From Naegleria gruberi (taxonomy: Eukaryota), in the NCBI GenBank assembly GCA_000004985.1, contig GG739352.1: a stretch of 1,672 bases of DNA; one strand, given 5' to 3'. Every line of letters starts with the position of its first letter. Within the stretch, counting starts at the first letter, position 1. This document shows positions 1 to 1,404 of the stretch, one piece after another. The notes beneath the pieces are model-generated. The model saw nothing but the letters and a program-made list of their open reading frames with translations, was not told the origin of the DNA and did no database searches. A program made the position numbers and the translations under genes.

Positions 1-11
1 CAAGTTCTCGC

Positions 12-17
12 AATAAA
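12..17 (+). other. AATAAA hexamer, a candidate poly(A) signal, repeated at 1581-1586. It is the only canonical hexamer downstream of the stop codon within the unit.
   Basis: No AATAAA lies between the stop (1404) and the TATA element. The nearest one downstream is at 1581-1586, 177 nt past the stop and beyond the putative promoter. AATAAA is frequent by chance in sequence that is 63% AT. Confidence 0.12.
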
Positions 18-29
18 TCACGGGAAGAT

Positions 30-49
30 AAAAAAAATACGAATCATGG
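30..49 (+). promoter_or_regulatory. A-rich, probably unstructured translation leader (A8 at 30-37) followed by the Kozak-type start context aatcATGg.
   Basis: The sequence is gataaaaaaaatacgaatcATGg, with A at -3 and G at +4 and no GGAGG-like Shine-Dalgarno within 20 nt upstream. This context and spacing are typical of efficient eukaryotic-type initiation. Confidence 0.3.
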
Positions 50-1404
50 TGGATGCAACATTGTCCAAGAAGATACTGCAATCGTTGCACCTTTCTGTGA
101 GACTTGTGAGCCCCTTCCACAACTTGAAAAATAGAAAATTCCAAGTTTTTATTAGTACCCCTTCTGGAATTGATGATAGTAGTATTCAGTTGTTGCATTC
201 GGTTGCTTGCTTGTGTGAACCAAGTAGTGTTATAAGTACGAGAAATAGCAGTCTTGGTGGCAGTGGAAATTTGAGTGATATGTACATTGATCCATTGACA
301 AGAATGGTTACATTTCAAAGTACAATTTCACCGAAAGAAGTGACACAATCTGATGATGGTAAATCACTTTTTATTAAAGTGGGAAATTATGGAAAGAATC
401 CAGGAAGAACACAATTCAAATTCTTGGCTCTCATATTTGAAATCCAGTATCAGAATCAATACTATCAAGCTTACATCACCATTAAAACTCAAAGAGGAAG
501 TGGTGTTGAGCAAAGAGGTTGTACAACCAAAGAATCCTGTTTCATTTCAGATGCTGTTCAAAATGAGGAGGATGAATTCATTCAGGCTTTTTTAAGGTTT
601 AACTCTTTAGGCTCTTCTTTAAGTAATTGTTCAAGTCCAACCAACAGGAGGAGAACACCAAACAGCAAGCCAAACTTTGGAAGTGTCTTTGCAGAGCAAA
701 AATTTGTAAATTTCATGGAAGGCACAACAGATTCTCTTGACAGACTTACTCCTGATATTATTGCTGTTGGACAATCTGACAACTATGATGATGAAATTGA
801 TTATCAAAATTCACTTACTGATTTTTACAATACCATCACATTCACAAAAATCCATTTTGAAAATGGACCAAAACAGGGTGGACAACCAAATACTCTTTAT
901 TTATCATTCAAAGACAGCTCAAAAACTGGATTGTATGAAATGATAAAACACCATTCAATGCAAAGTATCAGTATGTGGTTTGTACCAAAGCATCACCCAG
1001 AAGTTCAGGTAGGTCTTCCACAAATACTTCACATCAGTGAAATTGGAAATTATGCAGCCCTCCATTTTATAACTTCTCCAGTTCTTACACATTTTGAGGG
1101 TGATTTGGATTCTTGTGTTTTCTTGGTTATTGATAATGAAATAATTGATGGACTAGTTGACTATACATTTGTAGACACTTCCAATACTCAATCAAATAAT
1201 CTTCAATTCATAACTTATTATCATCCAGAAGAGAATCTGCAAAGCAATAGATTCATTCAGTACACTGCCCAACAATCATGTGCTCAAGAATCGATCGAAT
1301 TTGTAAATAATTATATTCCAGAAATTAGCCTTTTGAATAATACATGTAAAACTAGGAATATTGGGAGCAAAAAAGATCGCAAGGCATTTGCTGGTAACAC
1401 TTGA
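46..1404 (+). CDS. Hypothetical 452-aa protein rich in S, N, Q and T, with no recognisable catalytic motifs. It is the only substantial ORF of the 1569-bp unit.
   Basis: The frame runs ATG (46-48) to TGA (1402-1404) without interruption. With about 63% AT, roughly 6.8% of random codons would be stops, so 452 stop-free codons have a chance probability near 1e-14. Start context is aatcATGg, with A at -3 and G at +4, which is Kozak-like. There is no purine-rich Shine-Dalgarno upstream. The translation alternates hydrophobic and polar residues in stretches typical of beta-strands (FKFLALIFEIQY, YQAYITIKTQ, VFLVIDNEIIDGLVDYTFVD). It contains one Trp, encoded TGG, and no internal TGA, so the standard code fits. 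I found no Walker A (GxxxxGK[ST]), no GDD, no HUH or Rep motifs, and no transposase DDE signature by eye. Confidence 0.8.
   Translation: MVDATLSKKILQSLHLSVRLVSPFHNLKNRKFQVFISTPSGIDDSSIQLLHSVACLCEPSSVISTRNSSLGGSGNLSDMYIDPLTRMVTFQSTISPKEVTQSDDGKSLFIKVGNYGKNPGRTQFKFLALIFEIQYQNQYYQAYITIKTQRGSGVEQRGCTTKESCFISDAVQNEEDEFIQAFLRFNSLGSSLSNCSSPTNRRRTPNSKPNFGSVFAEQKFVNFMEGTTDSLDRLTPDIIAVGQSDNYDDEIDYQNSLTDFYNTITFTKIHFENGPKQGGQPNTLYLSFKDSSKTGLYEMIKHHSMQSISMWFVPKHHPEVQVGLPQILHISEIGNYAALHFITSPVLTHFEGDLDSCVFLVIDNEIIDGLVDYTFVDTSNTQSNNLQFITYYHPEENLQSNRFIQYTAQQSCAQESIEFVNNYIPEISLLNNTCKTRNIGSKKDRKAFAGNT

Follow-up and report, generated by a model that had tools for sequence, protein, structure and literature searches.

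A self-overlapping 1672-nt scaffold of Naegleria gruberi probably derives from a collapsed tandem duplication of a truncated paralogue in a Naegleria-specific gene family

The window, a stretch of 1672 nt analysed here at its full length, is an orphan unplaced scaffold of the Naegleria gruberi nuclear assembly. Its two ends carry the same sequence. A left terminal direct repeat at positions 1-103, made up of 45 nt of 5' flank and the first 58 nt of an open reading frame, recurs with 100% identity at positions 1570-1672, and the spacing between the copies is 1569 nt. The scaffold thus reads through a 1569-nt unit once and a little further; the unit is arranged either head to tail in tandem or as a circle, and the circular or tandem nature implied by the first-pass annotation is real. 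A single collapsed contig fits tandem and circular arrangements alike. Two further direct repeats (D2 and D3) and four inverted repeats (I1-I4) are short and imperfect and were treated as chance similarities; the two copies of D2 fall in different reading frames.

An open reading frame at 46-1404 on the plus strand occupies 87% of the 1569-nt unit. It starts with ATG, encodes 452 aa and is identical to the N. gruberi predicted protein NAEGRDRAFT_60099 (XP_002668077.1, EFC35333.1, D2W6G9; an exact match on a 1672-nt contig). The frame had been described as statistically certain, and its length is indeed far above chance: with the base composition of the window, 452 stop-free codons have a probability of P ~1e-15, and when the unit was read as a circle the observed stop-free run of 1449 nt compared with a longest run of 768 nt (mean 243) in 2000 shuffles. 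The window has a GC content of 35%, GC is distributed unequally across the codon positions of the ORF and third positions are AT-rich (GC3 = 0.27). The protein is enriched in S (11.1%), T, N and Q, as had been noted, and the peptides quoted earlier (SLGSSLSNCSSPTNRRRTPNSKPN, TSNTQSNNLQ and GSKKDRK) were all found in its translation. The statement that it bears no replicase, capsid or enzyme signature also holds for Pfam, PHROGs, NCBIfam and PDB sequences. Pfam returned Ntox24 alone, below the Pfam cutoff (E=0.015); no match came from PHROGs, NCBIfam or PDB sequences when the protein was the query, nor from PDB sequences with the family profile described below. A literature search on locus tags and UniProt identifiers found no paper.

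Judged by sequence comparison, the window protein is not an orphan and has clear cellular homologues. These were found by exhaustive HMMER search; a word-index protein search returned the ORF alone and missed a paralogue with 81% identity, and its negative result is unreliable. In phmmer P0002 matched with E=1.4e-217 and 81% identity over aa 2-413, and P0005, which shares a 507-kb scaffold with P0002, was likewise 81% identical to the window protein. The full-length N. gruberi paralogues, NAEGRDRAFT_79322 (XP_002678665.1, 915 aa) and NAEGRDRAFT_79332 (1133 aa), hereafter 79322 and 79332, are located on this 507-kb scaffold. They share the start position with the window copy and show 75-81% identity to it over the N-terminal ~431 residues. 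Other relatives are C9374_004741 of N. lovaniensis (821 aa), a protein of N. fowleri (978 aa) and P0003 from a metagenomic contig (841 aa). Their resemblance to the window protein is weak but significant, with 24-31% identity in aligned stretches and phmmer E values of 1e-6 to 2e-8 (P0003 E=2e-8, P0004 E=1e-6). The family has so far been seen only in Naegleria species and on this one metagenomic contig, and is uncharacterised.

The more distant relatives are all full length, possess the C-terminal domain and lie in ordinary chromosomal context. The N. lovaniensis orthologue, which contains an intron, is located on a 666-kb contig with ATG5, lipase, DUF4116-kinase, FHA/Forkhead and BTB genes as neighbours, so that the family is found on 507-kb and 666-kb chromosomal contigs amid ordinary eukaryotic genes. 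A full-length hit to a cellular protein family with chromosomal context had been named at the outset as the mark of a plain host gene. Cellular family and chromosomal context are largely provided by these relatives, but the match spans only the N-terminal part of the family: its members measure 820-1130 aa and the window protein corresponds to the N-terminal 45% (~431 residues).

When the window was searched by tblastn with the paralogues, homology stopped at 1275-1338, and the C-terminal half of the family (a helical region and the FNCxWN...N[ST]xHY domain) had no match in any frame. In 79322 and 79332 this half comprises ~470 aa that are 93% identical between the two, whereas it is wholly missing from the window copy. 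Because neither tblastn nor frameshift-tolerant alignment recovered the C-terminal half, the window copy is, as far as sequence comparison goes, a truncated member or fragment of the 79322/79332 family. A possible continuation of the family in a shifted frame within 1339-1569, where FLQNSNVQISDSVDL resembles FIENFQMQFGKIIDI, was rejected: the frameshift-tolerant alignment scored 31 against 27.5 +/- 4.1 for shuffles, and 42 of 200 shuffles scored at least as high. Nor does the end of homology coincide with a family intron, as the N. lovaniensis exon is uninterrupted at the equivalent position and the sole nearby GT...AG spans 10 nt.

The retained part shows a mosaic structure. Codons 1-95 (46-330, plus strand, as are all parts of the ORF given below) are 71% identical to 79322 and 57% to 79332, with many unique changes. 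Codons 96-378 (331-1179) are 98% identical (278/283) to 79332 and 86% to 79322, and look like a gene-conversion or recent-copy tract. Homology then decays across codons 379-431 (1180-1338): codons 379-395 have 65% identity to 79322 against 35% to 79332, codons 396-431 have 36% to each, and the last recognisable homology is ...YIPEISLLN. It is followed at 1339-1404 by a non-homologous tail, NTCKTRNIGSKKDRKAFAGNT, and the stop codon. The pattern suggests active gene conversion among the N. gruberi paralogues. A 98%-identical central block with divergent ends would also be seen if reads from several paralogues had been merged into a chimeric consensus.

A rival explanation is that the scaffold is an assembly or cloning artefact. 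It would then be a consensus of few Sanger reads from 79322-like and 79332-like loci and low-quality read ends, and neither the overlap nor the truncated ORF would exist in the genome. The sharp divergence on both sides of the 283 central codons, the progressive fall in identity toward the 3' end of the ORF (aa 379-452), the tiny, unplaced nature of the scaffold and the fact that the exact ORF is recorded in no other assembly of the gene-position collection are all in keeping with this explanation. However, at least one further locus must exist, because neither annotated paralogue matches the first 95 codons. Moreover, a frame that stays open over 452 codons, with largely conservative differences from the paralogues, is unlike random read error, and the two copies of the terminal repeat agree perfectly along all 103 nt. 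On balance we regard an artefact as unlikely, although it deserves to be kept in mind.

Both beta domains and the low-complexity linker with its RRR patch are common to the window copy and the two N. gruberi paralogues. The N-terminal part (~aa 1-165; 46-540) is predicted to form a beta-sandwich of Ig-like (IPT/TIG-like) type, with D78, P83, R86, F126, T145 and C165-x-I167-S168 as conserved residues. A linker rich in S, N, T and R (~aa 168-260; 547-825), which includes SLGSSLSNCSSPTNRRRTPNSKPN, has a pLDDT of 24-43 and is poorly aligned or missing in P0003 and P0004; it is not conserved among the N. lovaniensis, N. fowleri and P0003 proteins. A second predicted domain of beta-strands follows (~aa 262-375; 829-1170), its strands at low pLDDT (37-47), in which H270-F271-x-x-G274, N282 and Y285-L286 form invariant columns. 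The invariant residues of both beta domains are shared by the window protein and the relatives from outside N. gruberi. The structure model is of low confidence (mean pLDDT 39.6; 29.8 for a single-sequence AF2 model), and Foldseek with the model gave matches to two-Ig-domain proteins, the fold matching Ig-like domains only. Tentatively, the protein would consist of two beta-sandwich domains of Ig-like type with a disordered linker between them. A tentative comparison is with IPT/TIG (E-set) Ig-like domains, such as the C-terminal Rel-homology domain of NF-kB/NFAT and the IPT domains of plexin and Met, at an identity of only 10-15% and with a low-confidence model. Neither the TIG nor the RHD model of Pfam matches the sequence of the window protein, which also gives no evidence for a DNA-binding N-terminal Rel domain. 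The possibility that the C-terminal extension of P0005 and the two beta domains are internal repeats was considered and discarded (hhalign probabilities <1%). The first-pass annotation had proposed GSKKDRK and RRR as nuclear-localisation or nucleic-acid-binding signals. Both proposals are weak: GSKKDRK belongs to the 21-residue tail, where homology has already ended, and RRR falls within the linker, which varies from species to species and is predicted to be disordered.

The spacer between the stop codon and the end of the unit (1405-1569) forms, together with positions 1-45, a non-coding stretch of 210 nt. It contains a TATA-like sequence, TATATAA, at 1507-1513, ~106 nt upstream of the ATG. 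The only plus-strand AATAAA of the unit is located at 1581-1586 (also 12-17), that is 177 nt past the stop codon and 28 nt ahead of the ATG. In N. gruberi AAUAAA is the signal in use, and 3' UTRs have a median length of 39 nt (PMC11529991); with its only AATAAA so far from the stop codon, the ORF therefore lacks a native-looking 3' end. The spacer has no significant secondary structure (DNA fold z=-0.33 against shuffles), no stem-loop origin and no similarity to L001 and L004. A scan for bacterial promoters and terminators gave nothing above shuffles, and no terminator-like or GC-rich hairpin.

These features bear on the question whether the ORF could be an intact short gene, encoding a functional, selected two-Ig-domain protein and repeated in tandem; such a protein might, for instance, regulate the full-length family or act as its decoy. 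The intact frame of 452 codons with the native start codon of the family, the TATA-like motif and the retention of the conserved residues of both beta domains speak in its favour. Against it, the end of the ORF is non-homologous and has no AATAAA nearby, and over the final ~55 codons of homology the copy is strongly degraded relative to both paralogues, which are far more alike to each other there (32/48 vs 13/36). In addition, no short orthologue was found: the proteins of N. lovaniensis and N. fowleri and the metagenomic relative are all 821-978 aa long. We consider a functional short gene quite improbable.

The first-pass annotation had raised the idea of an autonomous element in which this protein was the whole system, acting in replication, movement or nucleic-acid binding. 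The unit is small and apparently circular, one dominant ORF takes up 87% of it, and the encoded protein belongs to no Pfam, PHROGs or NCBIfam family; this is what might be expected of a small circular virus, a satellite, or an Obelisk-like or viroid-like element encoding a single novel protein. CRESS-DNA satellites, Obelisks and delta-like agents are indeed comparable in size, single dominant ORF and apparently circular contig. Unlike CRESS-DNA elements, however, the window has neither the HUH endonuclease and SF3 helicase domains of Rep (searched in Pfam, PHROGs, NCBIfam and PDB) nor an origin hairpin, and a jelly-roll signal is absent as well. It differs from Obelisks, viroids and delta-like agents in having no rod-like fold, no ribozyme and no similarity to Oblin or delta antigen. 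Folded as a circular RNA, the unit reaches an MFE of -338.6 kcal/mol, with 60% of its bases paired, and its shuffles reach -339.3 +/- 9.5 (z=+0.08). An Rfam search at E<=1 found no rRNA, ribozyme or other RNA family. No relatives were found in viral contigs, plasmids or phages, and no viral fold relatives of the protein were detected. A search of metagenome collections for homologous ORFs had been suggested in the first-pass annotation; searches of JGI metagenomes by protein pattern and of metagenomes with the junction DNA returned none. The homologues of the protein form a Naegleria cellular gene family, of whose chromosomal members it is an N-terminal fragment. The notion of an autonomous element is thus unsupported; a replicon of this kind is largely refuted and we regard it as extremely unlikely.

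A different question is whether the 1569-bp unit could be a real extrachromosomal circle (eccDNA), excised or amplified from a paralogue locus and carrying the ORF as a passenger. The contig is exactly circularly permuted, and Naegleria maintains circular DNA in the nucleus: a 14-kb rDNA element at ~4000 copies (PMC5805870, PMC10112140). This element, CERE, offers a precedent from the same genus (PMC5805870). CERE, however, is 14-16 kb long and encodes rRNA, whereas the unit measures 1.57 kb, matches neither rRNA nor any other Rfam family, and is a candidate circle. The spacer without origin-like hairpin or other structure, the lack of a replication protein signature and the failure to find a similar unit in metagenome, viral and plasmid collections all argue against a circle, and a tandem repeat yields the terminal overlap equally well. 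An excised or amplified circle is accordingly improbable. Still less probable is a genuine N. gruberi eccDNA that would be a second nuclear circle beside the rDNA element, carrying a promoter and the truncated two-Ig-domain gene and being maintained or amplified independently of the chromosome. Only if this unlikely reading were true would the window be of wider interest.

The explanation that we consider probable is that the window represents a truncated, probably decaying third paralogue of the 79322/79332 family in a collapsed tandem duplication. The evidence thereby favours the last alternative listed in the first-pass annotation, a tandemly arrayed host gene. The copy retains the start codon native to the family and ~431 N-terminal codons, encoding the two predicted Ig-like domains and the disordered linker, as a patchwork of the two full-length paralogues; homology is lost at about nt 1338, followed by 21 unrelated codons and the stop, with the helical and LRAT/NlpC-like C-terminal half missing in all frames. 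A stretch that begins ~230-276 nt before the ATG and ends at codon ~431 may have undergone head-to-tail duplication in the chromosome. During assembly the copies would then have been merged into a single unit whose ends overlap, and gene conversion with the full-length paralogues may have produced the mosaic, which sets the window copy on its 1.67-kb self-overlapping scaffold apart from both paralogues on their 507-kb scaffold. We infer that the gene has been copied only in part and that this truncated copy is in decay, possibly a pseudogene, which if expressed would yield a two-Ig-domain fragment only and would have no role in replication.

Little rides on this result other than that a candidate "single-protein autonomous element" is removed as a partial host-gene duplicate on a collapsed orphan scaffold. 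Such outcomes are common in draft eukaryotic assemblies and are a warning for scans that take self-overlapping contigs as circles. Of modest value are the hint of active gene conversion given by the mosaic and the definition of a small uncharacterised family with two predicted Ig-like N-terminal domains and a putative C-terminal papain-like domain without catalytic cysteine. This LRAT/NlpC-P60-like papain-fold domain constitutes the C-terminal half of the full-length family and is missing from the window. Its Pfam LRAT match was sub-threshold in P0006 (E=0.075), and where P0006 has NCQHF the full-length Naegleria proteins read NTGHY, NSGHY or NSAHY, so that the cysteine of the catalytic NCxHF motif is absent. 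The full-length proteins most likely act as cytoplasmic or nuclear scaffold or binding proteins, in which the Ig-like modules would serve for interaction.

The first 103 bases of the window (1-103) are copied exactly at 1570-1672, so its 1672 nt represent a unit of 1569 nt read slightly more than once. As proposed in the first-pass annotation, the ORF at 46-1404 (plus strand, 452 aa) is far longer than chance would allow: with the composition of the window, an open frame of 452 codons has a probability of about 1e-15. When the unit was shuffled 2000 times, the longest run without a stop had a mean length of 243 nt and a maximum of 768 nt, as against 1449 nt in the circularised unit. The GC content at third codon positions (GC3) is 0.27 in the ORF, and composition is unequal among the three codon positions. 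The peptides quoted in that annotation and the enrichment in S, T, N and Q were all found in the translation. The length of the unit is divisible by 3 (523 codons); stops in frame at 1402-1404 and upstream of 1522 close any endless frame around it.

The ORF product is identical to an N. gruberi 'predicted protein' already deposited, NAEGRDRAFT_60099 (XP_002668077.1, EFC35333.1, UniProt D2W6G9). The only contig that carries it is 1672 nt long, and the window is therefore among the smallest of the scaffolds left unplaced in the nuclear assembly of N. gruberi. The G+C content of 35% and the AT-rich third codon positions are as expected for the AT-rich genome of this organism. No paper naming NAEGRDRAFT_60099 or its paralogues was found in the literature. 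The gene model is already public, without a name; what is new is its membership, as a truncated and mosaic copy, of a small uncharacterised family.

Searched exhaustively with HMMER, a collection of 1.84 billion representatives yielded three relatives of the ORF product: the N. gruberi paralogue NAEGRDRAFT_79322 (915 aa; E=1.4e-217, 81% identity over aa 2-413), a protein of 841 aa from metagenome or SRA assemblies (P0003; E=2e-8) and C9374_004741 of N. lovaniensis (821 aa, on a 666-kb contig; E=1e-6). Profile searches added a second paralogue, NAEGRDRAFT_79332 (1133 aa), located on the same 507-kb scaffold as 79322, and an N. fowleri homologue of 978 aa; P0003 was not returned by these later searches. 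A word-index search with the same query found only the query itself and missed the 81%-identical paralogue in the same collection; negative results of this kind are unreliable for such a low-complexity, AT-rich protein. The family has thus been seen in three Naegleria species and on one metagenomic contig.

The N. lovaniensis gene contains an intron and is flanked by genes for FHA/Forkhead, ATG5, lipase, DUF4116-kinase and BTB proteins, which is a plain nuclear chromosomal context. P0003 is encoded on an 88-kb contig amid LRR, ankyrin and DUF4116 genes, and another heterolobosean could be its source. Its locus has a G+C content of 42.5%, the gene lacks an intron, and the closely packed genes at 1-4338 and 14084-14526 include three in a row for LRR proteins, one for an ankyrin protein and one for a DUF4116 protein. 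The first-pass annotation had suggested searching metagenome collections for homologous ORFs; searches of JGI metagenomes, and of viral contigs, plasmids and phages, found no relative.

All full-length relatives comprise 820-1130 aa, and the ORF product corresponds to their N-terminal part alone. In tblastn searches 79322 covered nt 46-1275 and 79332 covered nt 52-1338, while the C-terminal ~470 residues of the paralogues had no match in any frame of the window. An intron at the point where homology breaks off is unlikely, since the N. lovaniensis gene runs uninterrupted across the equivalent position. Frame-shifted remnants of the continuation were also considered; a frameshift-tolerant alignment scored 31, within the range of shuffles (27.5 +/- 4.1), so that the 3' region keeps no such continuation. 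The basic patch GSKKDRK pointed out previously is present, but it lies in codons 432-452, which are without counterpart in the family. The ORF is almost certainly a fragment of a host gene family.

It had also been suggested that the ORF might encode a novel replication protein of an autonomous element. We found no ribozyme or other Rfam family in the unit and no origin-like hairpin in its spacer; neither sequence nor fold searches gave a signal of a Rep, capsid or Oblin-like protein. As a circular RNA the unit reached no greater folding stability than its dinucleotide shuffles (z=+0.08), with 60% of its bases paired. On these results and on the cellular homologues, we reject a virus, satellite or Obelisk-like element, whose probability we regard as very low.

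The retained N-terminal part is, by its identities to the two N. gruberi paralogues, a mosaic. Codons 1-95 are 71% identical to 79322 and 57% to 79332; the values are 86% and 98% (278/283) for codons 96-378, 65% and 35% for codons 379-395, and 36% with both for codons 396-431. In this last segment the paralogues agree with each other in 32 of 48 aligned columns, and the window copy is much less similar to both of them. GC3 is 0.36 in codons 1-95 (46-330) and 0.25 in codons 96-378 (331-1179), a contrast that fits separate histories of the two segments and accords with the mosaic.

The explanation we favour, with moderate confidence, is that a segment of a family member from the promoter to codon 431 was duplicated head-to-tail, and that the assembler merged the tandem copies into a single orphan scaffold with overlapping ends. 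The mosaic would then be due to gene conversion from 79322 and 79332, and the degraded last codons to decay at the 3' end. Of the earlier proposal of a host gene in a tandem array, the host origin stands firmly and the tandem arrangement less so. The scaffold might instead be an assembly chimera built from reads of different paralogues, which we consider unlikely. That the unit is a real eccDNA has a precedent in the Naegleria rDNA circle; we judge it improbable. Very improbable, though the one reading of note, is that Naegleria has in the unit a small circular nuclear DNA besides that of its rDNA. On the view we favour the window is of a commonplace type: part of a paralogue, on a repeat that was collapsed.

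The non-coding stretch of 210 nt (1405-1569 and 1-45) contains a TATA-like TATATAA at 1507; it does not fold into significant secondary structure (z=-0.33) and does not resemble the orthologous loci. The sole sense-strand AATAAA of the unit (12-17 and 1581-1586) follows the stop codon by 177 nt and precedes the next ATG by 28 nt. Poly(A) signals of N. gruberi are mainly AAUAAA, and its 3' UTRs have a median length of 39 nt (PMC11529991); given this distance, the ORF stop does not resemble the end of a native gene. A functional short paralogue is quite improbable. The AATAAA might be the poly(A) signal of a gene once upstream in the ancestral locus, or a per-unit terminator in a tandem array.

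Neither the ORF product nor its family had a significant match in Pfam, PHROGs, NCBIfam or PDB sequences, in agreement with the reported lack of a replicase, capsid or enzyme signature. AlphaFold2 reached a pLDDT of only 30 with the ORF alone; a model of the 915-aa paralogue with a six-sequence family alignment was poor overall (mean pLDDT 39.6). Its N-terminal beta-sandwich is of moderate confidence (aa 1-57 and 92-150, pLDDT 55-77). A linker modelled as disordered (aa 168-260, pLDDT 24-43) leads to another block rich in strands (aa 262-375), and the C-terminal half is helical. The best Foldseek matches of this low-confidence model were two-Ig-domain proteins (TonEBP, Fab fragments); a viral structure library gave nothing meaningful (top matches TM <= 0.1). 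Residues 1234-1467 of a metagenomic protein of 1521 aa (P0006) aligned with the C-terminal domain of the family, at the columns of aa 586-844 of 79322 (hhalign probability 95%). P0006 retains the motif H...NCQHF, which is typical of papain-fold enzymes of the LRAT/NlpC-like kind; its Pfam LRAT match stays below threshold (E=0.075). At this site the Naegleria proteins carry NTGHY, NSGHY or NSAHY, the cysteine being replaced by Thr or Ser, which suggests that the catalytic cysteine has been lost. We infer that the full-length members are scaffold or binding proteins without catalytic activity; if it is expressed, the window copy could provide at most the two predicted Ig-like modules.

Two gene models in the family deserve comment. 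The annotated start of C9374_004741 is at 8001, yet in-frame alignment with the homologues of N. gruberi and N. fowleri begins at 7812 and 7854, respectively (region 7812-8411 of the locus), and the N. fowleri protein aligns weakly (40% identity) within the annotated intron at 8315-8623. These alignments indicate that the model is probably 5'-truncated and that the intron may be partly coding. NAEGRDRAFT_79332 has a C-terminal extension of ~240 residues (aa 896-1133), strand-rich by eye and missing from 79322. It showed no significant link to the N-terminal beta domains (hhalign probability <1%) and could be a gene-model fusion with an adjoining gene.
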